Below are positions 2,973 through 19,177 of a stretch of DNA of 64,000 nucleotides, piece after piece. Position 1 is the first letter of the stretch, and every line of letters starts with the position of its first letter. Under the pieces are notes generated by a model. That model was not told the origin of the DNA and did not search any database. It was given only the letters and a program-made list of their open reading frames with translations. The DNA is from Gammaproteobacteria bacterium (GTDB lineage Bacteria; Pseudomonadota; Gammaproteobacteria; VBWC01), in contig VBWC01000010.1 in the NCBI GenBank assembly GCA_006218035.1, positions 203,572 through 267,571 on the forward strand. Direction: 5' to 3'. The translations under genes and the position numbers were made by a program.

Positions 2973-5900
2973 TCAACTCTCCAGCAACCGCACAAACTCC
3001 CGTGACGGCACGGCGGGGGAATAGAGGAATCCCTGGGCGTAGTCGCAGCCGAAGGAGGCGAGCAGGTCGTGCTGTGCCTGGGTTTCGATGCCTTCGGCAA
3101 CGGTGCGGATGCCGAGCTTGCGGGCCATGACGATGATGGCCTCGACCAGCGCGATGTCGTTGTCGTTGCCGGGCAGGTAGTGCACGAACGAGCGGTCGAT
3201 CTTGAGGTAGTCGATGTTGAATTGTTTCAGGTACGACAGCGACGAGAAGCCGGTGCCGAAGTCGTCGATCGATACTTCGATACCGTTGTTTCTGAATTCC
3301 AGCAGGCGCTGTTTGACCTTGGGCGATTCCTTGAGCAGCAATCCCTCGGTGATTTCCACGGTGATACTGTCGCCCGGCAGGCCAAGGTCTTCCAGAATTT
3401 TCGACCACTGCTTGACGACGGGAAGCTCGAACTGTACCGGCGATTTGTTGATACTGACCTGGATGATGTCGCCGAACTGCTTGCGCCACTGGTCAATGTT
3501 GACGCAGGCATCCTGAAATACCCATTCGCAGATGTCGGCGATCATCCGGGATTCTTCGGCCAGCGGAATGAACACTTCGGGCTCGATCATGCCGCGCACG
3601 GGATGTTGCCAGCGCAACAGCGCTTCGGCCTTGACGATCTTGCGGTGCTTCATGTCGATGATGGGTTGATAGAACACGCGAAGCTCGCCCTTTGTCAGCG
3701 CGTGCCGCAAATCATCGGTCAGCGCGCGCTTCTCCTGTGCTTCCTGTTGCATCGATGGCGTGAAGTAACCGAAGCGGCTGCGCCCTTCGCCTTTCGCGCG
3801 GTACATAGCCTGGTCGACGTGTTTCATCAGGCTGTCGAAGTCCTGCGCGTCATCGGGGCACAGCGTAATGCCGACGGTCGCGGAGATATAACCGAAGTCT
3901 TTGCTGCCGAGGCAAAAGGGCTTGTTCAGTTCCTGAATGATTTCCTGCGCGACGCGCTCGACGTCGTCCGTGTCGCCGAATTCAGGCAGGATCACCGTGA
4001 ACTCATCACCGCCGAGGCGCGCGACCGTATCGGCATCGCGCACGCAGGCGCTGATGCGGCGTGCGGCCTCGATCAGCAGCACGTCACCCTTGGCGTGTCC
4101 CAGCGTGTCGTTGATTTCCTTGAAGCGATCGAGATCGATCAATAACAGCGCAATTGGCGAACCGGTGCGGTGGGACTTGCGGATCTCCATTTCCAGACGG
4201 TCCTGGAACAACCGGCGGTTGGGCAGGTTGGTCAGCGGATCATAATTGGCCTGCGTCCAGATCAGTTCGTCCTGGCGCTTCTTTTCGGTGATGTCGGAAA
4301 ACTGCGCGATATGGCGGTAGACACTGCCGTCGGCATGGGGGATGACGCTGATGTTGACCCATTTGGCGTACACCTCGCCGTTCTTGCGCCGGTCCCAGAT
4401 TTCGCCCTGCCAGTGGCCGTCGTTGAGAATGCCGCGCCACATCTCACGGTAAAACGCGTCGTCGTGCCGGCCGGACTGCAACAGGCTCGGGTTCTGGCCG
4501 GCGACCTCGGCCAATGTATAGCCGGTGATGCGCGTGAAAGCCGGGTTGATGTCGACGATGCGGTTGCGCTCGTCGGTCACCATGATGGCTTCCATGCTGG
4601 ATTCGTAGATCGACGCCGCCAGCCGCATGTTCTCTTCGGCCTGCTTGCGCTCGGTGATGTCCATGGCCGCGCCAATTGCGTAACGGGGCTTGCCGGCACG
4701 GCCGCGCACGATAACGCCGCGATCGTGTACCCAGAACACCGTGCCGTCGCGACGTATCAGTCGATGCTCTGTGTCATAGGCGCCTGATTCGAGACCCAGA
4801 TCCCAGGCCCGGCGTATCTCCGGCACGTCGTCCGGATGCATATGGGAAAACCAGTCTTCCAGCGGCTGCGTGCTCGGCTCCGCCGGCAGGCCAAGCATGC
4901 GGTTCAACGAGGCATCGCGGGTGTCGATGTTAGTGCGCAAATCGACGCGCCAGGTACCGGTATTGCTCGCGTCCAGCGCCTGTTCGAGTCGCTCGTGACT
5001 TTCGCGCATCGCCGCTTCGATTCGCTTGAGCTCGGTGATGTCCCAGTGGGTGCCGACCAGACGCTGCACGCGGCCATGCTCGTCACACACAATTTCGCCA
5101 TGGGCCTTGATGTGCCGTATTGCGCCGTCCGGCCGGACGATGCGGAACTCGGTATCGAAGGGATTCGGTTCCCGTAGACAGGCCTGTACGTCGGCTTCCG
5201 CCTGCGCAATATCGTCCGGATGCACGCGGCAGCGCCATGCTTCGTAATCGCCCGAGAATTCCTCGCGACGTATGCCGTAGAGCGGAAACATGCTGTCGCC
5301 CCAGATAAGTTTGCCGCTGTCGACATTCCAGTCCCAGATACCGACGCCACCCGCGCGCGTGGCGAGTGCGAGGCGCCCTGCGCTTTCGCGCAGCGCGTTC
5401 TCCATTTGCTTGCGCTCGGTGAGGTCGACGATGGCGCCGACGGTACGCACCAGGCGGCGCGCGGCTCCCTGACCTTCGAACACGGCCTGTGAACGCGCGA
5501 TCACCCAGCGTATCGTGCCGTCGGTGCGCACCAGCCGGAACTCGACGACAAACAGTCCGTCGGCCTCGGCAGTGGCTAGATCGTGGGCATTGCGGATACT
5601 CGTCATGACTCGCTCGCGATCGTCCGGATGAACATGCGCGACAAAGGCATCGAACGTCGCCGGGTCATTGGGCGCGCGGCCGTAGATGTCCCGCAGCTCG
5701 GGAGACCAGTAGAGCGTGCCGGTGACGTGATCATGATCGAAGATGCCGCTGCGGGACGCGCGGGTCGCCTGCCGCAGCCGTTCCTCGCTTTGCTGCAAGG
5801 CCTCCGCGGCCTGCTTGCTCGCGGTGATATCGCGCGCGAATCCAACCGTGCCGAGCACATTGCCGTCCTTGTCGAGGATCGGCGTCTTGTTGGTCTCGAC

Positions 5901-6962
5901 CCAGATGTGGCGGCCCTTATCCACCACGTATTCTTCGATCTGTTTTCGTTTGCGCGTCGCCATGACCTCGGCATCGTCCGCACGGAATTTTTCCGCCAGC
6001 TCCCGCGGCCAGACATCGAGGTCCGTTTTGCCCAGTATTTCCTGCGGATCCGTTCTTCCAGCCGATATCACGTGTGGCATATTGACTGCGATGTAACGCC
6101 CTTCGGTATCCTTCAGCCACAGCAGATGCGGAATATTGTCCAGGATGGCATTCAGGTTAGCCTTTTCCTGCATCAGCGCGCGCTCGGCCTGCTTGAGTGC
6201 GGTGATGTCGTGGAACACACACTGGAAAATGATCTGGCCGTCGGGCAGGGTGATGGTGCGAATTGACACTTTTACGTCGAGAATGCGCCCGCTTTTCGTT
6301 TTGTGCCGGGACATGAAATCCTGCCTGCCGGTCGCCATGAGCCGCTGCATGATTTCCTGTATCTGAGCTTCGTTGAAGGCCAGCGAGTAATCCTTGACCC
6401 GCAGTTGCAGCATCTCCTCGGCCGAGTATTCGTAGACACGCAGCGCCTCGTCGTTGAAGCCGATGACGCGGTAATCGCTATTAATCAGCACGACACTGTC
6501 CGGCAACTGGCTGAAGAGCGTCTGGTAGCGCAGCTCGATCGCCTGTTTGTCGTTTTCGAGCCGCTTGTGAGCCGTGATGTCTTCGACAAGACACAGCAGG
6601 CTGTCGGGGGCGGCGGTGTCTCCTTTGATCGGTATCACGAGCACCGACGCCCAGATAACGGTGTTGTCCTTGCACAGGTAACGTTTCTCAACGCGGTAAC
6701 TGGGGATATTCCCGATTACCAGCTCGCTCAGACCGTCGATGTTGTGACGGATATCGTCAGGATGGGTAATTTCAGTGAAGCTGCGCCCGATCAGCTCGGC
6801 GCGGGGATAACCGAGCATTGCGCAGTAGGATGGATTGACGTCGAGAATCGTGCCGGCCAGATTTCCGTGGACGACCCCCAGCCCGGACGGCGCCAGCGCG
6901 GCAAATATTTCCGTTACCGTCGTATGTGACCGCCTGGACATACCTCTTCCCGGATCGAACAA
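2973..6962 (-). CDS. Multi-PAS/PAC sensor diguanylate cyclase/phosphodiesterase: PAS repeats, then GGDEF, then EAL.
   Basis: GGDEF motif (RLGGDEFTVIL), EAL motif (EALLRWQHP), and multiple PAS/PAC units. 1329 aa. Confidence 0.9.
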   Translation of the reverse strand: MFDPGRGMSRRSHTTVTEIFAALAPSGLGVVHGNLAGTILDVNPSYCAMLGYPRAELIGRSFTEITHPDDIRHNIDGLSELVIGNIPSYRVEKRYLCKDNTVIWASVLVIPIKGDTAAPDSLLCLVEDITAHKRLENDKQAIELRYQTLFSQLPDSVVLINSDYRVIGFNDEALRVYEYSAEEMLQLRVKDYSLAFNEAQIQEIMQRLMATGRQDFMSRHKTKSGRILDVKVSIRTITLPDGQIIFQCVFHDITALKQAERALMQEKANLNAILDNIPHLLWLKDTEGRYIAVNMPHVISAGRTDPQEILGKTDLDVWPRELAEKFRADDAEVMATRKRKQIEEYVVDKGRHIWVETNKTPILDKDGNVLGTVGFARDITASKQAAEALQQSEERLRQATRASRSGIFDHDHVTGTLYWSPELRDIYGRAPNDPATFDAFVAHVHPDDRERVMTSIRNAHDLATAEADGLFVVEFRLVRTDGTIRWVIARSQAVFEGQGAARRLVRTVGAIVDLTERKQMENALRESAGRLALATRAGGVGIWDWNVDSGKLIWGDSMFPLYGIRREEFSGDYEAWRCRVHPDDIAQAEADVQACLREPNPFDTEFRIVRPDGAIRHIKAHGEIVCDEHGRVQRLVGTHWDITELKRIEAAMRESHERLEQALDASNTGTWRVDLRTNIDTRDASLNRMLGLPAEPSTQPLEDWFSHMHPDDVPEIRRAWDLGLESGAYDTEHRLIRRDGTVFWVHDRGVIVRGRAGKPRYAIGAAMDITERKQAEENMRLAASIYESSMEAIMVTDERNRIVDINPAFTRITGYTLAEVAGQNPSLLQSGRHDDAFYREMWRGILNDGHWQGEIWDRRKNGEVYAKWVNISVIPHADGSVYRHIAQFSDITEKKRQDELIWTQANYDPLTNLPNRRLFQDRLEMEIRKSHRTGSPIALLLIDLDRFKEINDTLGHAKGDVLLIEAARRISACVRDADTVARLGGDEFTVILPEFGDTDDVERVAQEIIQELNKPFCLGSKDFGYISATVGITLCPDDAQDFDSLMKHVDQAMYRAKGEGRSRFGYFTPSMQQEAQEKRALTDDLRHALTKGELRVFYQPIIDMKHRKIVKAEALLRWQHPVRGMIEPEVFIPLAEESRMIADICEWVFQDACVNIDQWRKQFGDIIQVSINKSPVQFELPVVKQWSKILEDLGLPGDSITVEITEGLLLKESPKVKQRLLEFRNNGIEVSIDDFGTGFSSLSYLKQFNIDYLKIDRSFVHYLPGNDNDIALVEAIIVMARKLGIRTVAEGIETQAQHDLLASFGCDYAQGFLYSPAVPSREFVRLLES

Positions 6963-7398: not shown

Positions 7399-10300
7399 CT
7401 ATTTCTTCGCCGCAACCTTCTGTGAGCGGCGCAAACGCGACAGCAACCGTCGGGCCATTTCGCCGAAGAGTTCGGTCTGGGTCGGGTGCGGGTGAATGGC
7501 GTGGGCGACCTGGTCGAGCGTCAGTTGGCCCGCAACCATCATGACGGCCTCGCCGATCAGCGTGTCGGCATGGTCGGTGAGGAAATGCACGCCGATGATG
7601 CGGCGGCTGGCCTTGTCGGCGACGAGTTTGATCATGCCGAGCGTTTCTCCGGTGATCATGGCCTTGGCGTCGATGCTCATCGGCATTTTCACTTCGACGG
7701 CGTCGATGTTTTTTGCCTTGGCCTGTTCCACCGACAGGCCGACGAATGCGGCCTGCGGACGCGTGAAGATCACGCCACAATCCTTGTCCTGGTCGTAGCG
7801 CGCGGACTCGCCGCTGATCGTCGCCGCGGCGACGCGGCCCTGCGTGGCGGCGGTATGCGCGAGCATGTAGCCACCGATGACATCGCCGACCGCGAAGATG
7901 TGCGGCACGTTGGTGCGGCACGACGCGTCGGCCTTGATCAGGCCCTTTTCGCTTTGCACGCCGGCGACGTCGAGGTTCAGCGGATCGAGCACCGGGCGCT
8001 TGCCGGTCGCCATGATCACGTAATCACACGCAAGCTTCTTCGCGCGGCCGCCGGCGGGTTTGTAAGTAAGCTCCATCTTGCCCGGCTTGCCGCTGATCTT
8101 CTCGACCTTCGCGGAGGTGTGCACGGTCAGACGCTTGTCGTCGTTGAGTATCTTGGCAAGGTTGGTGGCGATCTCCGGTTCGACCTCGGCGAGCAACCGA
8201 TCCTGCACTTCTATCAATGTGACCTGCGCGCCGAAGTCCTGGAATATCTGCGCCATCTCGACACCGATCGCGCCTCCGCCGACAACGGCGAGTTTTTTCG
8301 GTGCCTTGCTCAGGAACCAGACCGTATCGGATGTCAGCACGCCGCCGGACGCGAGCCCTTCTTTCGCACCGGATACCGGCGGCACGAACGGCGGTGCACC
8401 GGTGGCAATCACGGCCGCGCCGAAGGTGATGCGTTGCCCCTTGTTGCCGTTACCTTGCGGCGCGCGCGCGTGCGGGTCTTTGCGGTTGCCGGAGGTGTCG
8501 ACGAACACGGTGTGGTCGTTTTCAAACCGTGCAAAGCCCTGGATGACTTTGATCTTGACGCCGGTGTCGGTCTTCAGCGCCATGTCGCCGCGCGTTTCGA
8601 GCACGCCACGGCGGGTTTTTTCGAGCACTTTCCAGTCGAGCTTTGCAACGTTGGTGCCTTTCACGCCGAGGCGCGCGTCGTGCGCGCGATCGCGCATGCG
8701 ATCGGCCGCGGCGCGCCACGCCTTGGACGGAATGCAGCCGCGCCACAGACATTCGCCGCCGGGGAACGACGAGTCGTTGATCATCGCGACCTTGAGGCCG
8801 TGCTCGACGAGTTCGCGGGCGCAGTCTTCGCCGCCGGGGCCGCCACCGATGACGACGACGTCATAGTCCCACTTGCCGGCCGGTATCGCCGGACCGCTTG
8901 GGCCCATCCAGCCGTCCGGCTGTTCGATGTACTGCTTGAGTGTGTTCAGATACATGGCCACATCCGCTCCGTTAACGACGCGGTGATCCGCGGTGATCGT
9001 GAGCGGCATGCCCCGCTCGTCGGCTGAAGAGATCGCGAGTATCGCGGCCGTGCCCGGCGTTGGAATTGCATCGAAGTACGTCACACCGAGCATGCCCATG
9101 TTCGATACCATGAACGTCGGATTTTGAAATTCGGCCGGCTTCAGGCGGCGCTTGCGCGCGCGCGGGACGAGGTCACTCCAGTCCGTGTTCAGTTCCTTGA
9201 GCGTGCGCGATTCACAGTTACGCAGTATCGGCACCACCAGGCCGCCATCGTCGGCGGCGACAGCGACGCCGATATCGACGTTGGCGCGCTCGACAAGTTT
9301 GTCGACCGGCTGGTAGGCCCAGTTCATGTTCGGGTGTTTTTGCATGGCCAGCGCGCAGGCTTTGGCGATCGCGACCGAGACCGAGATGCCGGCCTTCTTC
9401 GCCGCGCTGATCAGTGCCGTGGGTTGCGCGTTCAGACTGACGCGGAACGTCGGCATGCTTAGCGCGCCGCTCATGGCCTGCGCAATGTTGCGCTCAAGCG
9501 AGGTCATCGGCCGGCCGGCACCGGGCACTTCAACGACCGGGAACGCCGCGCCCGCCGGCGCGGCCGGCGCAGTGCGTTGCACGTCGGTACCGACGATCAC
9601 GTTGCGCGGGCCGCTGCCGGCCAGCATGTTGAGATCGACGCCCGTCTGGCCGGCGAGTTTGCGCGCGTACGGTGTCGCGAGCTTGCTCTTCGGGCGCGGC
9701 GCGGGACGCGTGCCGGCTGTAGTCGCCGATGATGACGGCGCGGCGGTCTTCTTTTTCTTCTGCGGCTCTGCGGCCACAGCGGCGACGGGCGCCATCGCGC
9801 CGCTCTGCACCTGCGCCTTGGCCTCGACCAGATAACCCATCGCCGCGCCGACCGGAATCACGCTGTCGGCCTCGGCCAGCGGGCCGGACAGAAAACCCTC
9901 GCGAAACACCTCGACGTCCATGATCGCCTTGTCGGTCTCGACGCTGGCGACGATGTCGCCGCGTTCGATCTTGTCGCCAACCTGCTTCTGCCATTCAACG
10001 ACAACACCTTCGGTCATCGTGTCCGACAGCTGCGGCATTTTGATTATGTGGGTGACGCCTGCGGGTTCGGCGGATGCCTGCGGTGCGGCGCTGGCCGGTG
10101 CGACGGCGGGTGCTTCGGATGCTTCTTCATCGCCGGACGCCACCAGCGCCTCGCCGGCTTCCGCGACAACCTCGTTCGCGCTGGCGACCAGATAGGCTAG
10201 CGCGCCACCAACCTGCACGACGCTGTCGACGGCCGCGCGCGGACCAGACAGCCAGCCCTCGCGGAACACCTCGACATCCATGATGGCCTTGTCGGTCTCG

Positions 10301-10422
10301 ACGGTCGCGACGATGTCGCCGCGCTCGATCCTGTCGCCGATGTTCTTCTCCCAGCTCACGACCACACCTTCGGTCATCGTGTCGGAGAGCTGCGGCATTT
10401 TGATGGTGTAGGGTTGAGACAT
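7399..10422 (-). CDS. Fused dihydrolipoyl acyltransferase (E2) and dihydrolipoyl dehydrogenase (E3). It has two lipoyl domains, a peripheral-subunit-binding domain and an E2 catalytic core (aa 1-506), a Pro/Gly linker, then a full FAD/NAD E3 (aa 518-1007).
   Basis: Lipoyl-lysine motif ETDKA occurs twice. PSBD: PYARKLAGQTGVDLNMLAGSGPRNV. E2 active site: DHRVVNGA. E3 motifs: DYDVVVIGGGPGG, the redox disulfide GGECLWRGCIPSK, and the C-terminal HPHPTQTE. There is one uninterrupted frame and the junction is ...QPDGWMGPSGPAIPAGKWDYDVVVIGGGPGG. Confidence 0.85.
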   Translation of the reverse strand: MSQPYTIKMPQLSDTMTEGVVVSWEKNIGDRIERGDIVATVETDKAIMDVEVFREGWLSGPRAAVDSVVQVGGALAYLVASANEVVAEAGEALVASGDEEASEAPAVAPASAAPQASAEPAGVTHIIKMPQLSDTMTEGVVVEWQKQVGDKIERGDIVASVETDKAIMDVEVFREGFLSGPLAEADSVIPVGAAMGYLVEAKAQVQSGAMAPVAAVAAEPQKKKKTAAPSSSATTAGTRPAPRPKSKLATPYARKLAGQTGVDLNMLAGSGPRNVIVGTDVQRTAPAAPAGAAFPVVEVPGAGRPMTSLERNIAQAMSGALSMPTFRVSLNAQPTALISAAKKAGISVSVAIAKACALAMQKHPNMNWAYQPVDKLVERANVDIGVAVAADDGGLVVPILRNCESRTLKELNTDWSDLVPRARKRRLKPAEFQNPTFMVSNMGMLGVTYFDAIPTPGTAAILAISSADERGMPLTITADHRVVNGADVAMYLNTLKQYIEQPDGWMGPSGPAIPAGKWDYDVVVIGGGPGGEDCARELVEHGLKVAMINDSSFPGGECLWRGCIPSKAWRAAADRMRDRAHDARLGVKGTNVAKLDWKVLEKTRRGVLETRGDMALKTDTGVKIKVIQGFARFENDHTVFVDTSGNRKDPHARAPQGNGNKGQRITFGAAVIATGAPPFVPPVSGAKEGLASGGVLTSDTVWFLSKAPKKLAVVGGGAIGVEMAQIFQDFGAQVTLIEVQDRLLAEVEPEIATNLAKILNDDKRLTVHTSAKVEKISGKPGKMELTYKPAGGRAKKLACDYVIMATGKRPVLDPLNLDVAGVQSEKGLIKADASCRTNVPHIFAVGDVIGGYMLAHTAATQGRVAAATISGESARYDQDKDCGVIFTRPQAAFVGLSVEQAKAKNIDAVEVKMPMSIDAKAMITGETLGMIKLVADKASRRIIGVHFLTDHADTLIGEAVMMVAGQLTLDQVAHAIHPHPTQTELFGEMARRLLSRLRRSQKVAAKK

Positions 10423-10439
10423 CGGGTCAGCTAGTTATC

Positions 10440-10860
10440 TTTTTAGTTCTGCCGTTGCTAGTCGTGCCTGCACAAGCAGGAATCCAGTGTTTTGATGGGT
10501 TGCGCCTGCGGCTGCACCCATCCTACGCGTGTTCCCCCTCTCCCTTAGGGATTTATACCCTGGGGGTAGAGGGTCGGGGTGACGGAACAAACTTCTAGTT
10601 AACTCCCTCATCCTCGGCAACTGCTCCTGCGTTGCTCTCGGTCGTTGCTCCCGGCACGACTCTACCTCGCCCATCCATGGGCTCGTACCTCCTGCATCCA
10701 TGCAGTCGTGTCCTTCTCCCCAAAGGAGAAGGGACGCTTTCGAATTATTCACCAATACCAAATTCAGACTGGTTGCGCCCCACCCTGTCTTTCCCCCTCT
10801 CCCACAGGGAGAGGGCGGGGTGAGGGGATCACTATTCAGCCGGCGGTTACTACCGTCACT
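10440..10860. repeat. Block of mosaic repeats: an inverted copy of family B modules plus ccctctccc..agggagagg palindromic modules. It fills the E1-beta to E2-E3 intergenic region.
   Basis: 10490-10520 is the reverse complement of gtaggatgggtggagccgcaggcgtaacccatc. 10650-10690 is the reverse complement of 895-950. 10618-10645 is the reverse complement of 7204-7228. ccccctctcccttagggat and ccccctctcccacagggagagggcgggg resemble 781-800. Confidence 0.6.
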
Positions 10861-10867
10861 AATACCT

Positions 10868-11848
10868 TTACTTCCCCATCATCGCCCGCACCGCCTTCAC
10901 GACATCCTTGGCATGCGGGATCGTGGCTTTTTCGAGGGCGTGGTTGTAGGGGATCGGGATATTGACGGCGGAGACGCGTTTCGGCGCGGCATCGAGTTCG
11001 AAGAAACATTCTTCGTTGATAATCGCCATGACCTCGGCGCCTACACCGACGGCCGGTTCGGCCTCTTCGACGATCACCGCGCGATGCGTCTTCGACACCG
11101 ACTTTTTTATGCCGGCGCGATCCAGCGGGCTTAAGCAGTACAGGTCCACAACTTCGCAATTGATGCCGTGCTTGTCGGCCAGCAGCTTCGCCGCCTCCAG
11201 ACACCAGTGCACCGAGATGTTGTAACCGAACAGTGTCACATCCTTGCCCTCGCGCGCGACCTCCGAGCCTACCAGCGGATGGAAGAATTCGGCGTCGGGC
11301 ACCTCGCCCTTCATGTTGTACATCAGCTCGTGTTCATAGATGAACACCGGGTCGTTGCAGCGCACGGCCGACTTCAGCATGCCATAGGCCTGGCGCGGGT
11401 TCGACGGCGTGACGACGCGCAGACCGGCAATGCCCATGAAGACCTTTTCCATGCGCGCCGAATGCTGCGCGCCCAGCTGATGCGCGGTGCCGCCCGGCGA
11501 GCGGATCACGACCGGCGCCGTCAGCTGGCCGCCGGACATGTAACGCACCTTGACCGCGGAATTGGCAATCTGGTCCAGCGCCAGCCACGCGAAGTTGACG
11601 GACATGATCTCGATAATCGGCCGCACGCCGAGAAACGACGCGCCGATACCGAGGCCGGTGTAGCCATTCTCTGAAATCGGCGTATCGATAATTCTTTCAG
11701 GGCCGTATTTGTCGTACAGGCCTTGCGTCGCCTTGTAGGTACCACCGGCCACACCAATATCTTCACCCATCGCGATCACCAGCGGATCGTTCGCCATCTC
11801 TTCATCGTGGGCACGGCGGATCGCCTCCCAGAAGCGTATCTCGGCCAT
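10868..11848 (-). CDS. 2-oxoacid (pyruvate/acetoin-type) dehydrogenase E1 component beta subunit.
   Basis: Transketolase-like pyrimidine-binding and C-terminal domains, typical of PdhB/AcoB. Its start overlaps the E1-alpha stop at 11848. Confidence 0.9.
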   Translation of the reverse strand: MAEIRFWEAIRRAHDEEMANDPLVIAMGEDIGVAGGTYKATQGLYDKYGPERIIDTPISENGYTGLGIGASFLGVRPIIEIMSVNFAWLALDQIANSAVKVRYMSGGQLTAPVVIRSPGGTAHQLGAQHSARMEKVFMGIAGLRVVTPSNPRQAYGMLKSAVRCNDPVFIYEHELMYNMKGEVPDAEFFHPLVGSEVAREGKDVTLFGYNISVHWCLEAAKLLADKHGINCEVVDLYCLSPLDRAGIKKSVSKTHRAVIVEEAEPAVGVGAEVMAIINEECFFELDAAPKRVSAVNIPIPYNHALEKATIPHAKDVVKAVRAMMGK

Positions 11849-12852
11849 CAGCTCGCCCCTCCCTGTGCACCGCCCGTTACCCAGGGATCGTTCTCGGCGA
11901 ACAGATACTTCTCCAGTTCGGCAACGTCCGGTTCCGGCGACTGTTCGGCGAACGGCACGATTTGGTTGTCTATTTCATCGAGTATTTCTTTGTCCATCGC
12001 CTTGAACTCGGCCATCGTCAGCACCTTGGCCTTGATCAAACGCTCGCGCAGGATATTGATCGGGTCGCGCTCGATCCATTCCTTCTCTTCGTCCTTGGAG
12101 CGGTAGGTGTTGGAATCGGACATCGAGTGGCCGCGATAGCGGTAGGTCATCAGCTCGAGAAAATACGGTCCCTTGCCGGAACGGACATGATCGACCGCTT
12201 TCTGCGCGGCCTTGTAGACGATCTCGATGTCCTGGCCGTCGACCTGTTCGGACGGAATGTTGTAACCGGCGACGCGCTTGTATTGATCCAGCACCGCCGT
12301 CGAACGGTCGATGCGCGTGCCGATGCCGTACAGGTTGTTTTCGCAGACATAGAGCACCGGCAATTTCCAGACCGATGCCATGTTCAGCGCCTCATGAAAG
12401 CTGCCCTGGTTGTTGGCGGCATCGCCGAGAAAGCAGATCGCGATCTCTTCTCCGCCCTTCAGCTTGATGGCCTTGGCCATGCCGGCCGCCAGCGGAAACG
12501 GCCCGCCGACCAGCGCATAGCCGCCCATGAAGCGGTGCTCGACATCAAATATATGCATGGAGCCGCCACGGCCCTTGCAGGTGCCGGTTTCTTTGCCGTA
12601 TAGCTCGGCCATGACCGCCTTGGGGTCGGCGCCGCTCAGCATGGCGTGGACGTGATCCCGGTAGCCGGTAATCACATAATCGAATCCCGGCTTTGCCGCC
12701 GCCATCACGCCATGGGCGCAGGCTTCCTGACCCGGATACAGGTGCAGGAATCCGCCGATTTTGCGCTCGACATAGCCTACGTAACAGTGCTCCTCGAAAC
12801 GCCGGGAAAACAGCATGTCGCGGAGCAGCCGTTTCTTATCAGTGTTATTCAT
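11848..12852 (-). CDS. 2-oxoacid dehydrogenase E1 component alpha subunit (TPP-binding).
   Basis: TPP motif GDAANNQG...NN, and the phosphorylation-loop-like YRYRGHSMSD, typical of PdhA/AcoA. Confidence 0.9.
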   Translation of the reverse strand: MNNTDKKRLLRDMLFSRRFEEHCYVGYVERKIGGFLHLYPGQEACAHGVMAAAKPGFDYVITGYRDHVHAMLSGADPKAVMAELYGKETGTCKGRGGSMHIFDVEHRFMGGYALVGGPFPLAAGMAKAIKLKGGEEIAICFLGDAANNQGSFHEALNMASVWKLPVLYVCENNLYGIGTRIDRSTAVLDQYKRVAGYNIPSEQVDGQDIEIVYKAAQKAVDHVRSGKGPYFLELMTYRYRGHSMSDSNTYRSKDEEKEWIERDPINILRERLIKAKVLTMAEFKAMDKEILDEIDNQIVPFAEQSPEPDVAELEKYLFAENDPWVTGGAQGGAS

Positions 12853-12944
12853 GAGACGGCTTACCTTGGATACAAGAAATCGCGTGAGCGCGATATGATC
12901 TGTGTTTTAATGGCCTTGGTCAAGGCGAACCCGGCATATTCTAA

Positions 12945-14474
12945 ATGAAAATCAAGGTAAAACAGAACCTGAACGCGCCGGCCGAAAAGGCCGTTGATTC
13001 TATTGACGCGTTGATCGTGGTATTGCCGTGTAGCGACGCCAAACCGGCCTGGCCGGTGTTTGCGTACCGAAACATCATTAAGAAGCGTTTTGAGCGCCTC
13101 GGTGACCGGGCGGGTACGACGGAGCCGTTCGTGACGGAGCTGCCGAACGGTACCGGTACCCGGGTGGCGTGCATCTGGCTGGCAGCGGACAGCAGCGCGT
13201 TCCAACGGCTGACACTGGCACGCAAGGCGGTTGCGGCGCTGCTCGGCGCTGACCCCGCCAATATAGATGTGCTGTTCGCCGGGCTGGAATCCGCCGACAC
13301 CGAACACGCGGCGCAGGCGCTGGTGGCGGCGCTACTCGCCGCATCGGCCGAGCTGCCGCAATTCAAAAGCAAGCAACCGAAACCGAAGCGCCTGGCCACG
13401 GTCGCACTGCACGGTGTGAGCAAACAAATCGATCTTGCCCGTACCCTGGCCGAGGCGGCCGGTAATAATCTTGCGCGCGAGCTGACGATACTGCCGTCGA
13501 ACGAGCTGACGCCGGCGATGTATCGCAAACGTATTGCGACACTCGCCCGGCAACACGGCTGGCGCATGCAGTTTCTCGATACCGCCGCATTAAAGCGCAA
13601 AAAGGCCGGCGCATTTCTCGCCGTTGCGCAGGGCAGCGCCGAGGCGGATGCCGGCATCGTGCATCTGCAATACCGGCCGCGCCATGCCAAACGAAAACTG
13701 GCGTTGGTTGGCAAGGGCATTTGTTACGACACCGGCGGGGTCAACGTGAAACCGGCGAAGTTCATGTACGGCATGCACGAAGACATGGCCGGCAGCGCAG
13801 TTGCGCTCGGTACGCTGCTGGCGCTTACCGGGATCAAGGCCGACATCGCCGTCGACTGCTGGCTCGCGCTGGCGCAGAACCACGTCGGCCCCAAGGCCTA
13901 CAAGCCAAACGACATCGTGACGGCGAGTAACGGCACGACGATTGAAGTGGTGCATACCGATGCCGAGGGCCGCATGGTGCTGGCCGATACGCTGGCGATC
14001 GCCTCACAAGCCAAACCGGACCTGATCATCGATTACGCAACGCTGACCGGTTCCTGCGTACATGCGCTGGGCACCGCCTACAGCGGCGCGTTTACCAATC
14101 GCGACGAGATGCTTGTCGACGTGATTGCCGCCGGGCGCGACAGCGGCGAGCGCGTCTGGCCGTTTCCGACCGATGCCGATTACGACAAGGCACTGGACAG
14201 CGACATCGCCGATATCAAGCAATGCGCGCTCGACGGCACGGCGGATCATATACTCGCGACGCGTTTCTTGAGCCGCTTCGTCGGCAACGATATCCCGTGG
14301 CTGCACATCGACCTGAGCGCCAGCAGTAACAAAGGCGGGCTGGCGCACGTGCCGACCGACACCACCGGCTTCGGCATCCGCTACACGCTGAACCTGCTGC
14401 TGGATAAACAGGTGATCAAACCGGCGCGCGCGATCAAAAAGACTGCGGAGCATCAAGCGCGAAAGAAGGCCTAG
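12945..14474 (+). CDS. M17-family aminopeptidase, leucyl aminopeptidase/peptidase B-like.
   Basis: NTDAEGR-type signature (VVHTDAEGRMVLADTL), the GKGICYDTGG motif, and an N-terminal domain resembling PepB. Confidence 0.85.
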   Translation: MKIKVKQNLNAPAEKAVDSIDALIVVLPCSDAKPAWPVFAYRNIIKKRFERLGDRAGTTEPFVTELPNGTGTRVACIWLAADSSAFQRLTLARKAVAALLGADPANIDVLFAGLESADTEHAAQALVAALLAASAELPQFKSKQPKPKRLATVALHGVSKQIDLARTLAEAAGNNLARELTILPSNELTPAMYRKRIATLARQHGWRMQFLDTAALKRKKAGAFLAVAQGSAEADAGIVHLQYRPRHAKRKLALVGKGICYDTGGVNVKPAKFMYGMHEDMAGSAVALGTLLALTGIKADIAVDCWLALAQNHVGPKAYKPNDIVTASNGTTIEVVHTDAEGRMVLADTLAIASQAKPDLIIDYATLTGSCVHALGTAYSGAFTNRDEMLVDVIAAGRDSGERVWPFPTDADYDKALDSDIADIKQCALDGTADHILATRFLSRFVGNDIPWLHIDLSASSNKGGLAHVPTDTTGFGIRYTLNLLLDKQVIKPARAIKKTAEHQARKKA

Positions 14475-14838: not shown

Positions 14839-16026
14839 TTGCTGATCCTCGGCGGATCCATATTCCAGCTGCCGGTAATCTCGCGTGCTCTCAAACTGGG
14901 TCACCGGGTGATCACGGTGGATTATGCGCCGCATAATCCGGGGCATCGGCTCGCGCACGAGTATTATAACGTCAGCACGACAGACCACCGAGCGGTCCTC
15001 GCATTGGCCAGGAAATTGAGGATTGACGGCATTATCGCGTTTGCGTCCGATCCCGCGGCGTGGACTGCGGCGTATGTCGCCGATCAGATGGGCCTTCCCG
15101 GATGCCCTCCGGCCGCAGTCCACGTACTGACGAACAAGGCTCTCTTTCGCGCTTTCTTGCGAGATCACGGCTTTAATACGCCCAGGTTCGCCGTTGCTGC
15201 CGATCTTCCAGAGGCGTGCGAGGTGGCGCGCTCCATGGGGTTTCCGGTGATGGTCAAACCGGCCGATTCATCCGGAAGTAAAGGCGTGAGCCGTGTCGAC
15301 GATGCCGCCGGCATGGGCCAGGCTTTCCGTAACGCGCAGCATTACTCGCGCTGCGCAAGTGTGGTCGTTGAACAGTGGATAGAGCGGGACGGCACTCAGA
15401 TCGCCGGCGATGGCGTGGTTGTCGATGGAAAACTCGCCTTTTCCTGCCTCGGCGATGAGCATTTCGATAGCGAGTGTTCGGCATACGCGCCGGTCGGCGA
15501 GAGCTTCCCGGGCCACCTTGCCGCGGAACGACGGGAGATGCTGCTGGAGCGGCTGCAACAGCTCATGGCGTTACTTGGCATTGACAACCTGGTCTTCAAT
15601 CTCGATGCCATGTTCGATAACAACGGTGACCTGTGGTTGATCGAGATCGGGCCGCGCGCCGGCGGTAACTGCCTGCCGCTACTCATTCAACATCACACGG
15701 GGGTCGACATGGCGGACATCGTCATCCGGCAATCGCTCGGCGCACCGGTGACATTGCCTCTCCGCCCGGAAAAACCACCGGGATTTCACGCCTCGTGGAT
15801 GATTCATTCCAGATCGCCTGGCAAGCTGCGCGGGCTGCGAATGGCGCCACACCTGAATCCCTATACGATCGATATGCAACTGACAACGTCGACCGGCGCG
15901 GCGGTGAGCCGCTTTACATCCTCGAAAGATATATTGGGTTACGCACTATTCACTTTCCCAAGTGCCGCAGAAATGGAGGATAACCTTGCATGCATGGCCA
16001 CGTCACTGGAACCGATCGTCGCATAA
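14839..16026 (+). CDS. ATP-grasp domain protein, a carboxylate-amine ligase-like enzyme.
   Basis: N-terminal LILGGS, then the ATP-grasp core (FPVMVKPADSSGSKGV ... WLIEIGPRAGGN). It has a TTG start 10 nt after a strong SD, AAGGGGGAAA. Confidence 0.75.
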   Translation: MLILGGSIFQLPVISRALKLGHRVITVDYAPHNPGHRLAHEYYNVSTTDHRAVLALARKLRIDGIIAFASDPAAWTAAYVADQMGLPGCPPAAVHVLTNKALFRAFLRDHGFNTPRFAVAADLPEACEVARSMGFPVMVKPADSSGSKGVSRVDDAAGMGQAFRNAQHYSRCASVVVEQWIERDGTQIAGDGVVVDGKLAFSCLGDEHFDSECSAYAPVGESFPGHLAAERREMLLERLQQLMALLGIDNLVFNLDAMFDNNGDLWLIEIGPRAGGNCLPLLIQHHTGVDMADIVIRQSLGAPVTLPLRPEKPPGFHASWMIHSRSPGKLRGLRMAPHLNPYTIDMQLTTSTGAAVSRFTSSKDILGYALFTFPSAAEMEDNLACMATSLEPIVA

Positions 16027-17150
16027 CGACGCCATCAGCAGGCGCGTCAACGCTGATCAACTTGCCGAACCGCGATCGCTTCGAACAGCTGGCGAGGGAG
16101 ATATTTGCGTCCGGCTGGTTGACGAATAACGGGCCGATGGTGCGCGAGCTGGAGGAACGGCTCGCCGACTATCTCGGCGTCGAGTACCTGGTGCTAACCA
16201 GCAGTGGCACGCTGGCACTGCAGGTCGCCCTGCACGCGCTGGGAGTGTCAGGCTCGGTTGTCACGTCACCCTTCTCCTGGGTAACAACCGTCAGCTCACT
16301 CGCCTGGCTCGGGCTCACTCCGCTGTTCGCTGATATCGATGCCCGCACCTATAACATCGATCCGCGCAAAATCGAAGCGGCAATAACCGGGAATACGCGC
16401 GCCATTCTCGCCACCCATACCTTCGGTAACCCGTGCGATATCGAGGCGATCGATCAGATAGCCGCCCGTCGCGGACTGTTGTGCATCTACGACGCGGCAC
16501 ACGCTTTCGGCGTTGATTACCTGGACCGGAGTGTGCTTGCCTGCGGCGATGCGTCGGTACTCAGCCTGCACGCCACCAAGCTTTTTCATACCGTTGAGGG
16601 CGGTGCGGTTGTGCTGCGCGACGCGGAACACTGTCGGCGTGCCCGGTTGGCCGTCAACAATGGCCAGGCGGCCGACGGCCAGGTGCAGGCGCCGGGTATC
16701 AATGGCCGGCTGAGTGAGTTGCACGCGGCAGTGGGATTGTGCCTGCTGGACGATATCGATGCGGTGATGACGCACCGGCGTCAGAGCGCCGAAAAACTGC
16801 GGCTGCTGCTGGCATCCAGCGCAACCGGCCTGCAACAATTCAATCCACTGGCACGGGTGAATCACGCCTTTTTTCCGGTCGTATTTCCAACGCCCGAGCT
16901 GCGCGAAACTGCAATGGCTGCGTTGACCAGCGCGGGATTCATTCCCCATATCTACTTTGATCCGACGCTCAATCGACTGCCGTTCATCGGGTCCGGGCCA
17001 GCCATGCCTGTCGCAGAAGCGCTGAGCAAACGGATTCTCTGCCTGCCATTGCTCACCGCAGTGTCGCAGGAGGAATTGGCAGCCATGGCGGAAATAATTG
17101 CCGGGATCTGCCCGCTCGAAGAATATTCAGCTCGCAAGACCTGTGCATGA
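15990..17150 (+). CDS. DegT/DnrJ/EryC1/StrS-family PLP-dependent sugar aminotransferase.
   Basis: SGWLTNNGPMVRELEERLADYLGVEYLVLTSSGTLAL, then DAAHAFG, then SLHATKLF (the Lys site). The ATG lies inside the 3' end of the ATP-grasp gene, so the true start may be slightly downstream. Confidence 0.85.
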   Translation: MHGHVTGTDRRITTPSAGASTLINLPNRDRFEQLAREIFASGWLTNNGPMVRELEERLADYLGVEYLVLTSSGTLALQVALHALGVSGSVVTSPFSWVTTVSSLAWLGLTPLFADIDARTYNIDPRKIEAAITGNTRAILATHTFGNPCDIEAIDQIAARRGLLCIYDAAHAFGVDYLDRSVLACGDASVLSLHATKLFHTVEGGAVVLRDAEHCRRARLAVNNGQAADGQVQAPGINGRLSELHAAVGLCLLDDIDAVMTHRRQSAEKLRLLLASSATGLQQFNPLARVNHAFFPVVFPTPELRETAMAALTSAGFIPHIYFDPTLNRLPFIGSGPAMPVAEALSKRILCLPLLTAVSQEELAAMAEIIAGICPLEEYSARKTCA

Positions 17151-18415
17151 TGATCCCGCGTCAGTTACGCCCGGCAGGTGAACGCGTACCGTTGCCGGGC
17201 ATCAGTCCGCGGTCGTCCGGGGACAAGGCCGCGTCCGCGGCGGCAAACCTGCAGTTTCCGGGGTATCTCGCCCACTGGTACGGCTCGGGAACAGCGGCGC
17301 TGGCCGCAGCGCTGAAACTTGCGGCAAATCGTGCTACGACGACGCGCCCCGAAGTAGTGATGCCGGCTTATGCGTGTCCGGATGTCGTGAGCGCCGCGGT
17401 CTTCGCCGGCGTGCAGCCGGTGCTCGCGGACACGCTACCGGAGCTACCCTGGCTCGACCCTGTTAGCGTGGAAAGGTCCATCACCCGGCACACGGTTGCC
17501 TTACTGTCGATCAGATTTCTCGGGCTACCGTCGAACGACCAGGCACTGCGCCGCATGCTCGGCAGCGACGGACCGCTACTCATTGAAGACCACGCGCACG
17601 CTTTCCCGCTGGACATGCAAGTCCGCTCCAGCGCCGACCTGGTTGTCATCAGCTTCGGACGTGGCAAGCCGGTATCACTGCGGCGCGGCGGAGTTCTGCT
17701 GCAGACACTTGGCTCAACCGCAGCGAACGCGCTGCCCCCGCAGCCCGCCGATAGACGTGAAACCGGGGTCAGGCGGCTCACGCATCAGGCTAACTGTTTA
17801 CTCTACAACCTCTCGATTCAACCTGCGGTTTACCGGTTTCTTACAGGTGTGGCGAGAGTCCCGGTCGACGCCATTTCCTATCGTGAATTGACGGAACTCG
17901 AGCCGTTTCCGCACCGCCTGCACAGACTCCTGCCACAGGCGATCGACCGCCACAGAAGTACGGGGCGATGGCGCGAAGATACCATCGAGTCAATACTGCG
18001 CGGGCCGGACGTACCCTGGGTTGATGTCGCAACGCACAGCAGGCGCATGGCCGCCGCCGATTGCAGTACGGCCACACGCACCGACCGGCTATGGCGGTAT
18101 CCGTTGCTGCTGCGGTCAGAAACGGAGCGAGATCGATTGTTTGCCGGCCTTTGGCAGCAAGGACTGGGGCCGTCGCGAATGTATCGTCGTTTGCTCTCTG
18201 AGATTCCGGCCACCGCGACTTACGTGCGTTCAGGCGCCCACCCGGCCGCTGGCGACTTTGCCCGACGCTTGCTCACGTTGCCGTTGCATTCGGATGTCCG
18301 GAAGCGCGATTTGCTGGCTATGCGAAATTGCTTGGATCAATTTTCAGAGGTGTTTGACCAGACCGGCCGCACAGCCTTGCACCGATCCCATAAGGGTGCC
18401 AGGGTCGCGGACTGA
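17147..18415 (+). CDS. Second, divergent DegT-like aminotransferase-fold protein with a roughly 150-aa C-terminal extension.
   Basis: YGSGTAALAAAL, DHAHAF, and SFGRGKPVS (an SFxxxK-like Lys motif). There is a 4-bp overlap with the upstream gene. Confidence 0.55.
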   Translation: MMIPRQLRPAGERVPLPGISPRSSGDKAASAAANLQFPGYLAHWYGSGTAALAAALKLAANRATTTRPEVVMPAYACPDVVSAAVFAGVQPVLADTLPELPWLDPVSVERSITRHTVALLSIRFLGLPSNDQALRRMLGSDGPLLIEDHAHAFPLDMQVRSSADLVVISFGRGKPVSLRRGGVLLQTLGSTAANALPPQPADRRETGVRRLTHQANCLLYNLSIQPAVYRFLTGVARVPVDAISYRELTELEPFPHRLHRLLPQAIDRHRSTGRWREDTIESILRGPDVPWVDVATHSRRMAAADCSTATRTDRLWRYPLLLRSETERDRLFAGLWQQGLGPSRMYRRLLSEIPATATYVRSGAHPAAGDFARRLLTLPLHSDVRKRDLLAMRNCLDQFSEVFDQTGRTALHRSHKGARVAD

Positions 18416-18418
18416 CGT

Positions 18419-19177
18419 ATGGAAGCGCTCTCTAGACTTGACCTGCGCAAGCTGGATTCCCCCCTGGATGTCGGTGCGCGTATCACCGCCGCCTGCCGGA
18501 CGGCGCGGCTGGTTGTCGCGCGCACGCATCCGGCGGTGGGTCGCCACCGGGAATTCTGGGACGAGGCGCTGGCAGAACAATGCGAGCGTGTCCCGGTGGA
18601 CGAGGACGTCAAGACCGGCCTCGCGACCGGGAATTTGTGGTCCGACGTTGAATTCAACCCGGAATTCCAGCAATGTTTTCGCCACTCCAGTTCTGCACAA
18701 CCGCTACACACCGATGGCGCCTACCTTTCCGATCCGCCGCCGATCGTATTCCTGGTCTGCCACCGCGCCGCGCCGCGCGGCGGCGCAACCCTGTTCCTGG
18801 ACGGCCCGCAACTACTATCGCTGCTATCCACCGAACAACCCGAACTGTTGGCCATGGTCACTGCGTCACGCGCGCGCTTCAGGAAAGCAGACGTGGATGT
18901 CGAATCGACGATCATCGCTGCGCATCCGGCGGGGCCGTTGCTGCGGTGGAACTATTACGCGATGAGAAATCAGGCGTCGCCCGCTTTGCTCGCCGTCGTG
19001 GAAAAATTTCATTGCTTTCTGCAGGACACCGTCGACCGGTCACTGCCGCTTGCGGTCCGGCTCAATGAAGGCGATGCTGTGTTCTTCCACGACGCTCGTG
19101 TGCTGCATGGACGAGATGGTTTTACGGCCAGCATCACCGGCGATCGATGCTTGTGGAAAGGCGCTCTACGGATTTAA
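18419..19177 (+). CDS. TauD/TfdA-family Fe(II)/2-oxoglutarate-dependent dioxygenase.
   Basis: HTDGAY (HxD) and a distal VLHGRDGF (His...Arg), with spacing typical of the TauD fold. Confidence 0.6.
   Translation: MEALSRLDLRKLDSPLDVGARITAACRTARLVVARTHPAVGRHREFWDEALAEQCERVPVDEDVKTGLATGNLWSDVEFNPEFQQCFRHSSSAQPLHTDGAYLSDPPPIVFLVCHRAAPRGGATLFLDGPQLLSLLSTEQPELLAMVTASRARFRKADVDVESTIIAAHPAGPLLRWNYYAMRNQASPALLAVVEKFHCFLQDTVDRSLPLAVRLNEGDAVFFHDARVLHGRDGFTASITGDRCLWKGALRI

Follow-up and report, generated by a model that had tools for sequence, protein, structure and literature searches.

A conserved E2-E3 fusion subunit of a probable pyruvate dehydrogenase complex in sulfur-cycle Gammaproteobacteria

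Introduction

In the textbook 2-oxoacid dehydrogenase complex, the C-terminus of E2 is free for core assembly, and E3 is bound non-covalently and in sub-stoichiometric amounts. A departure from this plan was reportedly described by Powles and Rawlings in 1997 for the pyruvate dehydrogenase (PDH) of Thiobacillus (Acidithiobacillus) ferrooxidans, which is said to have an "unusual E2-E3 subunit fusion", with pdhA and pdhB followed by the E2-E3 gene. We know of no structure or stoichiometry for that fusion. The PDH of this chemolithoautotrophic proteobacterium would thus resemble the locus studied here in having E1 alpha and beta genes followed by a fused E2-E3 gene. The A. ferrooxidans genome paper gives PDH as three genes, AFE3068-70 (PMC2621215). 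Three genes would be consistent with the order pdhA-pdhB-fusion.

Another related system is the actinobacterial "two-in-one" E2o-E1o enzyme, OdhA/KGD (PDB 8P5R, 8P5S), in which an E2 domain and a dimeric enzyme in cis form a homohexamer and remodelling affects the inner beta-hairpin immediately upstream of the catalytic His (PMC10415282). Like OdhA, the protein described here has an E2 acyltransferase domain followed by an obligately dimeric enzyme in one chain; the OdhA particle has been solved. The helix at the C-terminal boundary of E2 doubles as the domain junction in OdhA, and the connector of our fusion likewise starts at the E2 C-terminal helix. The two proteins differ in the partner enzyme, which is E1o in OdhA and E3 here, and in the linker, which has 17 residues in OdhA compared to about 5-13 here. 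OdhA also lacks lipoyl domains and a peripheral-subunit-binding domain (PSBD) and borrows both from AceF, and its sequence kinship to the fusion is limited to the E2 fold.

Extra 2-oxoacid dehydrogenase modules N-terminal to E3 are found in Neisseria P64k (PDB 1bhy/1ojt), Ralstonia PdhL and the E3 of Mycoplasma and Clostridium, as in our fusion, and the E3 of P64k aligns to that of the fusion at E = 1e-56. In these P64k-type proteins, however, the lipoyl domain alone is attached on a flexible linker. They contain neither a PSBD nor a core-forming catalytic domain and, therefore, put no constraint on core architecture. An archaeal fusion survey mentions lipoyl/biotinyl-LpdA fusions only (PMC11237513). 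Classical PDH complexes with an alpha/beta E1, as in Geobacillus stearothermophilus and mitochondria, have a 60-mer E2 core and a PSBD that binds E1 or E3. The sequences at our locus are of the same type and in the same gene order, with 1ebd (E3) and 3b8k and 7uom (E2 60-mer) as the best solved matches. In contrast to the classical complexes, E3 is covalently attached at the E2 knob, the E2 core is ~22 residues shorter and without the hairpin before DHR, and E3 has a family-specific insertion (residues 643-661) and a CLWRGC disulfide motif.

Results

The DNA analysed was a 64-kb stretch, which is referred to as the window. The fused E2-E3 gene lies on the minus strand at 7399..10422 and encodes 1007 aa (106.3 kDa), with an ATG start and a stop codon at 7399-7401. 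An earlier note, made from the sequence alone, had described a single uninterrupted frame in which an E2 with two lipoyl domains, a PSBD and a catalytic core precedes a complete E3. ORF analysis confirmed the frame, with no internal stops across the 1007-aa ORF, and the HMM search that the note had proposed recovered E2 and E3, each of them complete. Pfam matched Biotin_lipoyl twice (residues 6-77 and ~126-197), E3_binding (248-282) and 2-oxoacid_dh (305-506), followed in the C-terminal half by Pyr_redox_2 (520-862) and Pyr_redox_dim (883-989). The motifs that had been quoted were each located in the translated ORF: DHRVVNGA at residues 479-486, GGGPGG at 526-531, CLWRGCIPSK at 558-567, HPHPTQTE at 977-984 and the junction QPDGWM-GPSGPAIPAGK-WDYDVVVIGGGPGG at 501-531 (about nt 8830-8922). 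The start codon is right, since the N-terminus agrees with the family consensus, MxEPYxIKMPQLSDTMTEG, in the homologue alignment. Third-position GC was 0.72-0.88 in the fusion frame and stayed high straight across the junction. K45, K165, S440, H480, C558, C563, K567, H979 and E984 were invariant in 66 aligned sequences, and dN/dS against the nearest relative came to 0.05 in the E2 core, 0.13 in E3 and 0.24 in the connector. Both halves are complete, their catalytic residues are intact and they are under purifying selection.

The E2 half begins with lipoyl domain 1 (residues 6-77; 10192..10407, minus strand), a Biotin_lipoyl match with its lipoyl-lysine, K45, in ETDKA. The second Biotin_lipoyl stretch, lipoyl domain 2 (residues about 126-197; 9832..10047, minus strand), carries the lipoyl-lysine K165, and the AF2 model has a beta-barrel at 123-199 in this region. 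The PSBD (residues 248-282; 9577..9681, minus strand) matched E3_binding at 2.4e-10 (PF02817; score 40.9 bits, cut-off 23.7), and P251, R254, A257, G271 and D280 were invariant in the family alignment. The E2 acyltransferase catalytic domain (residues 305-506; 8905..9510, minus strand) matched 2-oxoacid_dh at 1.6e-47 (PF00198, 162 bits). Its catalytic residues S440 and H480 were invariant and N484 nearly invariant in the same alignment; the N variant at this position of the DHRxx(D/N)G motif also occurs in A. vinelandii E2p. The best NCBIfam model for this half was the PDH acetyltransferase TIGR01349, with a score under the equivalog cut-off. The domain terminates in ...IEQPDGWM at the "knob" position, where the alignment to human E2 reaches to within 5 residues of the human C-terminus, and the knob residues W505 and M/L506 are conserved in the family.

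Sequence comparison showed that the E2 core is without a 13-aa hairpin preceding DHR that other E2s have. By sequence position, it may correspond to the hairpin before the catalytic His that is altered in OdhA. The deletion was first considered as an adaptation to the fusion, and this idea was downgraded because an unfused E2 (P0218), which has no adjacent E3 in its operon, has the same deletion.

The E3 dihydrolipoyl dehydrogenase (residues 520-989; 7456..8865, minus strand) matched Pyr_redox_2 at 1.4e-65 and Pyr_redox_dim at 2.4e-25, and PF07992, PF00070 and PF02852 all match this half. Its catalytic set was invariant, comprising the FAD motif GGGPGG (526-531), the redox pair C558/C563, the NAD motif GGGAIG (715-720) with E738 and the H979/E984 dyad. 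Foldseek comparison with solved E3 structures gave a TM of 0.86. TIGR01350 scored 380.3 bits, under its trusted equivalog cut-off of 408.8, and was still the top model, above MerA, glutathione reductase and others. Judged by its sequence, the E3 half is a divergent E3 subfamily, with CLWRGC replacing CLNxGC, and the same subfamily was found in other contexts (P0122 and P0124). The protein ends in an Arg-rich C-terminal helix, ARRLLSRLRRSQKVAAKK (7402..7455, minus strand), in which A990, R991, R992, L993, R996 and R999 are invariant; the AF2 model has a helix at 980-1006.

Between the two halves lies the connector GPSGPAIPAGKWD (residues 507-519; 8866..8904, minus strand), which was near-invariant in length and sequence in 81 sequences. 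The spacing from DHR to GxGPGG was 47 aa in 73 of the 81 and 46-48 aa in 79. The AIPxGxWD stretch of the connector is the N-terminus of this E3 subfamily and also opens the stand-alone E3 P0122; from these comparisons, the true E2-E3 linker is ~GPxGP, about 5 residues. In monomer AF2 models, the connector had a pLDDT of 70-86, compared to <50 in true flexible linkers, and the E2core-E3 construct had a pTM of 0.75. The models thus predict an ordered connector.

Two genes on the minus strand lie upstream of the fusion. The first, pdhA (11848..12852), encodes a 334-aa E1 alpha subunit that matched E1_dh at 7.7e-88 and scored 418.5 bits with NCBIfam TIGR03182 (PDH_E1_alph_y), exceeding the cut-off of 393.85. 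The second, pdhB (10868..11848), encodes a 326-aa E1 beta subunit that matched Transket_pyr and Transketolase_C and scored 368.9 bits with NCBIfam NF006667, above the cut-off of 321. The proposal that E1 alpha, E1 beta and the fusion make up a complex of three polypeptides agrees with the content of the operon, which encodes E1 alpha, E1 beta and E2-E3 only. No paralogous E2 or E3 was found elsewhere in the 64-kb window. Among related loci, E1 alpha was upstream of the fusion in 70/80 and E1 beta in 74/80, and the order E1 alpha-E1 beta-fusion was kept in all those having upstream DNA. Distant fused lineages showed the identical operon order.

A structured spacer of 445 nt (10423..10867, minus strand) separates pdhB from the fusion gene and contains two REP-like palindromic copies (10532-10585 and 10791-10826), with an RNA fold z of -4.0. 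No Rfam families were found in the window, spacer included. A 108-aa ORF in the spacer (10435-10761) was rejected as a gene; it had no Pfam match and was kept only in the nearest MAG. A 259-aa ORF at 12941-13720 was likewise rejected as an upstream gene, being an antisense shadow of pepA. A sigma-70-like promoter match upstream of pdhA (12895..12923, minus strand; 9/12 matches) is weak evidence, with two sites in the region against 1.3 expected by chance.

The search for homologues gave 1559 matches, with more than 120 full-length homologues among the matches listed, and a search of a genome collection found family matches in 411 GTDB species. An uninterrupted frame with both the DHR and CxxxxC motifs was seen at 80/80 species-representative loci examined. 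The related genomes examined are, therefore, fused and not split, which refutes for the family the worry that an indel or frameshift had merged two genes. Isolates that bear the fusion include Sulfuriflexus mobilis and Ectothiorhodospiraceae bacterium 2226, with complete genomes among them, and the hosts are mostly sulfur-oxidising lineages. Two proteins considered as split E2 orthologues, P0121 and P0127, were rejected as truncated or frameshifted fragments that still hold the connector. These alignments show the fusion and its junction to be kept across hundreds of sulfur-cycle gammaproteobacterial species. Other fused lineages, archaeal ones included, were found at 29-35% identity and number about seven at the least, in a grouping that rests on an NJ tree and is indicative only. 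These have a normal-length E2 core and longer, variable linkers. Lipoyl-E3 proteins were also numerous among the distant matches.

The suggestion in the earlier note that a fusion of a whole E2 to E3 was undescribed fails because the architecture is common, as the number of matching species shows, and is already deposited under the generic names "FAD-dependent oxidoreductase", "pyruvate dehydrogenase" and "dihydrolipoamide dehydrogenase". Full-text searches of a literature library found no paper in it describing a PDH E2-E3 fusion, and the matches to "E2-E3 fusion" all concerned ubiquitin. The architecture is real and under-studied, and it is not new.

Discussion

We consider it highly likely, with a probability of roughly 0.9, that the gene is genuine and vertically conserved and that its product is the bifunctional E2-E3 subunit of a PDH complex with a heterodimeric (alpha/beta) E1, encoded by the operon pdhA-pdhB-pdhC(E2E3). 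E3 is fixed at 1:1 with E2, as had been claimed, since this ratio follows by construction from a single polypeptide. A reaction scheme can be drawn from established knowledge of 2-oxoacid dehydrogenase complexes. E1(alpha2beta2) would dock onto the retained PSBD, and the pair of lipoyl domains, tethered by flexible Ala/Pro-rich linkers, would pick up acetyl groups at E1 and deliver them to the active site of E2, which would arise solely at the E2 trimer interface. The covalently attached E3 would then re-oxidise the lipoyl domains and pass the electrons to NAD+, and E3 would be active solely as a dimer because the His-Glu dyad is supplied by the partner subunit.

Our reading of the quaternary architecture is more tentative. 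An obligate E2 trimer domain would be tied to an obligate E3 dimer domain by a short, ordered and length-invariant connector, which would begin at the C-terminal helix that normally gives the "knob-into-hole" contact. In E2 cores, trimers meet on the 2-fold axis chiefly through this helix (PMC8421416). With trimer and dimer joined in this way at the knob, E3 dimers would most likely bridge E2 trimers. The product would be a non-canonical particle, for example an E3-edged cage or a D3 hexamer of the kind formed by actinobacterial OdhA, instead of a 24- or 60-mer with peripheral E3. The short ordered connector at the C-terminal knob argues for such a non-canonical assembly. We give somewhat less than even odds to the full proposal, in which there is no classical cubic or dodecahedral E2 core, E3 dimers rigidly fused at the knob serve as 2-fold connectors between E2 trimers in an OdhA-like 0.64-MDa hexamer or E3-edged cage, and E1 binds via a PSBD dedicated to E1. 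The modelling was monomer AF2 only, and the quaternary structure is one that we infer entirely; no solved structure covering both the E2 and E3 halves was found.

Another possible explanation, although a less likely one, is that a canonical 24- or 60-mer core is kept via the conserved W-M knob and E3 is displayed outside, with the fusion replacing PSBD-mediated recruitment of E3 and fixing the 1:1 ratio. The conservation of the hydrophobic C-terminal W505 and M/L506 would fit with this, as would the closest solved E2 relatives, which are 60-meric mitochondrial-type PDH cores. However, extensions at the C-terminus of the E2p 60-mer are located within the shell, and engineered C-terminal fusions on it make an inner layer (PMC7978432; cf. 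8eqn). The E3 domains could not fit inside a canonical core because, by calculation, 24 or 60 of them (1.28 or 3.2 MDa) would make a solid sphere with a diameter of 144 or 195 A. The normal-length E2 core and longer, variable linkers of the other fused lineages would also suit an outside position, but the linker of ~5 residues and the E3 N-terminal strand are predicted to be ordered here, and E3 dimerisation sets tight geometric limits on any outside arrangement.

It is improbable that the complex acts on a non-pyruvate 2-oxoacid (acetoin, branched-chain), or that its E3 mainly serves glycine cleavage, OGDH or the LbpA of sulfur oxidation. Such roles could be in keeping with the predominance of sulfur-oxidising hosts and with the presence of the E3 subfamily in other contexts. 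Although neither the E2 half nor the E3 half reaches the equivalog cut-off of its best NCBIfam model, the best model for E2 is a PDH acetyltransferase, E1 alpha passes the PDH-specific equivalog TIGR03182, E1 beta passes NF006667 and the operon is kept as a unit. A sequencing or assembly artefact, in which a one-base indel joined separate E2 and lpd genes, is hardly credible: E2 and lpdA very commonly stand next to each other in this order, so that loss of one stop codon would be enough for a fusion, and several plasmid records have one tblastn segment spanning both genes, but the same open frame occurs in 80/80 independent genomes, complete isolate genomes included, the junction is conserved in length and sequence, and GC3 and dN/dS are coding-like through it.

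The gene in the window belongs, as an ordinary member, to a large family that has already been sequenced, and it is of value because it points to a structural question. Unlike in the textbook complex, hundreds of sulfur-cycle bacteria that are abundant in the environment have E3 covalently joined to the E2 C-terminus, and similar fusions arose repeatedly, archaea included. Annotation would gain from attention to such proteins, which are now deposited as "FAD-dependent oxidoreductase". If true, an E3-bridged assembly would add a third structural solution to those of the 2-oxoacid dehydrogenase complexes, and it would be a trimer-dimer fusion assembly that occurs in nature. One solved member would tell if the actinobacterial exception, with its trimeric E2 and OdhA hexamer, fits a wider pattern.

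The fusion gene and its operon

The E2-E3 fusion is encoded on the minus strand (7399..10422; ATG start, 1007 aa in the ORF list). All the motifs quoted in the earlier note were present in one stop-free frame when this interval was translated, and the strand is the sole addition. The claim of a complete E2 followed by a complete E3 was borne out by Pfam, which resolved two lipoyl domains (residues 6-77 and about 126-197), the E3-binding domain or PSBD (248-282), the 2-oxoacid dehydrogenase acyltransferase catalytic domain (305-506) and, 13 residues past the E2 domain, a complete class-I pyridine-nucleotide-disulfide oxidoreductase (Pyr_redox_2, 520-862; Pyr_redox_dim, 883-989). In NCBIfam, the N-terminal half was best matched by PDH acetyltransferase TIGR01349 and the C-terminal half by dihydrolipoyl dehydrogenase TIGR01350, in both cases with a score below the equivalog cut-off. 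E1beta (10868-11848) and E1alpha (11848-12852) adjoin upstream on the minus strand, as had been proposed, and both passed curated PDH models (NF006667, 368.9 > 321; TIGR03182, 418.5 > 393.85).

On the minus strand, pdhB and the fusion gene are separated by an unusually long spacer of 445 nt (10423-10867), unlike in most relatives, in which pdhB nearly abuts the fusion gene. The spacer holds two REP-like palindromic copies of ~50 nt (10532-10585 and 10791-10826; core CCCTCTCCC...GGGAGAGGG) and additional hairpins (RNA fold z = -4.0), and a search of Rfam gave no match. This region may be a mobile REP insertion; alternatively, it may serve as an element for mRNA processing or stability that lets E1 and E2E3 be expressed independently.

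A 259-aa ORF upstream of pdhA (12941-13720, minus strand) was rejected as a gene. It is the antisense shadow of the leucyl aminopeptidase gene pepA (12945-14474, plus strand; Peptidase_M17, E = 9e-102), which is transcribed divergently from pdhA, and its apparent conservation in 23 loci is due to pepA on the opposite strand. Directly downstream of the operon, 2973-6962 (minus strand) encodes a 1329-aa signalling protein with at least five PAS domains followed by GGDEF and EAL (c-di-GMP turnover). A cluster for polysaccharide or amino-sugar biosynthesis, of ordinary gene content, lies at 14839-21200 and 31461-33008 (ATP-grasp, two DegT/DnrJ aminotransferases, a GT4 glycosyltransferase and a Bac_transf priming sugar transferase).

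Conservation of the fusion

A search of about 5.8 billion proteins (E <= 1e-30) gave 1559 matches, the best 120 of which were all about 1000-1140 aa with 96-100% query coverage, 65-92% identity and an identical Pfam set. One genome per GTDB species was scanned; 411 loci encoded a relative, and 80 of these were kept. All 80 are from Gammaproteobacteria (Sulfuriflexus, Thiohalobacter, Thiogranum, Thiohalomonadaceae, Granulosicoccaceae, Chromatiales, Thiotrichales and one MAG labelled Thiobacillus). As to whether orthologues are split or fused, every one of these loci has a single stop-free frame of ~1000 aa, with the E2 DHR and E3 CxxxxC motifs ~79 residues apart. Isolates with complete genomes are among the matches, namely Sulfuriflexus mobilis (3.1-Mb contig) and Ectothiorhodospiraceae bacterium 2226 (2.96-Mb contig). 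The nearest relative is the groundwater MAG nzgw581 (fusion, 92% identity; E1alpha, 98.8%; E1beta, 99.4%), and dN/dS against it was 0.05 in the E2 core, 0.13 in E3 and 0.24 around the connector. Third-position GC in this frame stayed at 0.72-0.88 across the junction. The GC3 continuity, the uniformly fused loci, the complete-genome isolates and the dN/dS values exclude an indel artefact that merged two genes. The fusion is a real feature and was correctly read.

Recurrence of E2-E3 fusions

In a protein library clustered at 50% identity, the single cluster P0008 holds the entire window family. Twelve further clusters (29-35% identity) aligned over both halves in a single stretch (P0128, P0129, P0130, P0134, P0137, P0153, P0162, P0166, P0211, P0177, P0151 and P0174). 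Pfam confirmed the order lipoyl-PSBD-catalytic-E3 in 8/10 representatives scanned (P0128 to P0177 in this list); in P0177, the PSBD was below the stretch threshold and the lipoyl domain was absent. P0166 and P0211 are complete lipoyl-PSBD-E2-E3 fusions of ~915 aa from Bathyarchaeota and Promethearchaeota (Asgard) MAGs; in the databases they are called "hypothetical protein" and "2-oxo acid dehydrogenase subunit E2". Deposited names are generic overall, and also include "FAD-dependent oxidoreductase", "pyruvate dehydrogenase" and "dihydrolipoamide dehydrogenase". The linkers of the distant clusters differ in sequence and in length (~5 to 35 residues), and the two lineages looked up also have the fusion gene behind E1alpha-E1beta. 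A rough NJ tree built from E3 domains scatters these clusters among unfused E3s, at seven or more separate positions. Since E2 directly followed by lpdA is very common, one lost stop codon suffices for fusion. The separate placements and this common gene order therefore indicate that E2-E3 fusion is recurrent.

The divergent E3 subfamily signature (GGEDCAR, CLWRGCIPSK, HPHPTQTE and an Arg-rich tail) is also found in two other proteins. P0122 (487 aa; locus L086) is a stand-alone E3 encoded beside, and in divergent orientation to, a complete canonical E1alpha-E1beta-E2-E3 operon that has its own E3. P0124 (797 aa) is a lipoyl-E3 protein with a C-terminal domain of ~200 aa and a CxxC motif (CEYC); our guess from its sequence is that this domain resembles AhpD/carboxymuconolactone decarboxylase.

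Catalytic competence

Among 66 family members, the lipoyl lysines (K45, K165), E2 residues S440 and H480, the E3 redox pair C558/C563, K567, the NAD-site glycines, E738 and the E3 dyad H979/E984 are invariant, and N484 is nearly so. The E3 half superposed on solved E3s with a TM of 0.86; no chain covering both halves was found among solved structures. Given the invariant residues and the fold match, both activities are expected in the fusion protein, and the chemistry would follow the standard cycle E1 -> lipoyl-E2 -> CoA -> E3 -> NAD+. The PSBD is kept, and its conserved Arg is intact. E1 and E3 are alternative ligands of the PSBD in complexes of the alpha/beta-E1 type, as established for G. 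stearothermophilus; the best E3 match among solved structures is 1ebd. Because E3 is covalently attached, the simplest expectation is that the PSBD would now serve E1.

Two features mark the E3 half. Residues 643-661 (8467-8523) form an insertion in the FAD domain, with D642, N646, P650, H651 and R653 conserved, that is present in the fused family and not in P0122 or ordinary E3s; E3 may contact the E2 core through this surface. Residues 990-1007 (7402-7455) form an invariant Arg-rich amphipathic C-terminal helix (ARRLLSRLRRS...) common to P0122.

The junction and the assembly of the complex

Length variation is almost nil across 81 junctions (consensus ...IEQPExWM-GPx-GPAIPEGxWDYDVVVIGGGPGGEDCAR...): the DHR-to-GxGPGG spacing is 47 residues in 73 and 46-48 in 79. 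W505, P514, G516, W518 and Y520 are invariant in the 66-sequence alignment. Alignment with human E2 ends at YLEKP, five residues short of the human C-terminus, so the whole E2 domain is retained, including the terminal hydrophobic knob position (DGWM versus ITMLL in human E2). P0122, at 58% identity, begins MGSSAKTTVIPEGDWD..., so AIPEGxWD belongs to the N-terminus of E3 itself, which leaves roughly GPxGP as the true linker. The flexible linkers (90-116, 212-237 and 286-303) had pLDDT < 50 in the AF2 model, against 70-83 for the junction; a model of residues 295-1007 gave 74-94 at the junction (overall pTM 0.75). The models thus lend modest support to an ordered, fixed junction.

An active site requires a trimer in E2 and a dimer in E3 (PMC10415282). 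When the E2p 60-mer of G. stearothermophilus is engineered to carry C-terminal domains, these form "an inner layer" (PMC7978432), and 8eqn has 79 extra C-terminal residues on E2. The E3 part is 53.3 kDa, and 24 or 60 copies (1.28 or 3.2 MDa) would fill a solid-protein sphere 144 or 195 A across. Spheres of this size come close to, or are larger than, the outer dimensions of the E2 cores themselves. With an ordered linker of ~5 residues, E3 could hardly reach the outside of the core, and its bulk means that it cannot sit inside a canonical one.

The closest solved precedent is OdhA, the actinobacterial E2o-E1o enzyme, which also joins an E2 domain to a dimeric enzyme in one chain. There, E2o is followed by 17 residues and dimeric E1o, and two E2 trimers and three dimers form a D3 homohexamer (PMC10415282). 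The inner C-terminus, the bulk of E3, the short linker and this precedent together favor an assembly in which E3 dimers would bridge E2 trimers, either in a hexamer or in a cage with E3 along its edges, to which we give a probability of about 45-50%. The E2 core of the window family also has a 13-residue beta-hairpin deletion, 10-14 residues before H480 (nt 9010-9030 region, around residues 465-471), corresponding by sequence position to the inner hairpin that is altered in OdhA, and is without ~10 residues after AAKK. All other E2s in that alignment, fused or unfused, retain both segments. However, the hairpin deletion is shared by P0218, an unfused 389-aa E2 (locus L084; E1alpha-E1beta-E2 operon without an adjacent E3). 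E2s without the hairpin thus form a subfamily that is independent of fusion, and the deletion cannot be claimed as an adaptation to it. Conservation of the W-M knob in the fused family is a further caveat on E3 bridging.

Relation to known complexes

The earlier note raised the possibility that the architecture was undescribed, but this did not hold, since the fusion is common in databases and already deposited (1559 matches, 411 loci), an outcome that the note itself had named as refuting. Full-text searches found no report of a PDH E2-E3 fusion among the papers covered. Powles and Rawlings (Microbiology 1997, 143:2189) reportedly described the PDH complex of Thiobacillus ferrooxidans as one that "has an unusual E2-E3 subunit fusion". 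This fits the A. ferrooxidans genome paper, in which PDH is just three genes, AFE3068-70 (PMC2621215). The window fusion thus belongs to a large, conserved, already sequenced family, is not novel in architecture and is probably of the type published in 1997. Its quaternary structure poses a legitimate question, tractable and moderately interesting.
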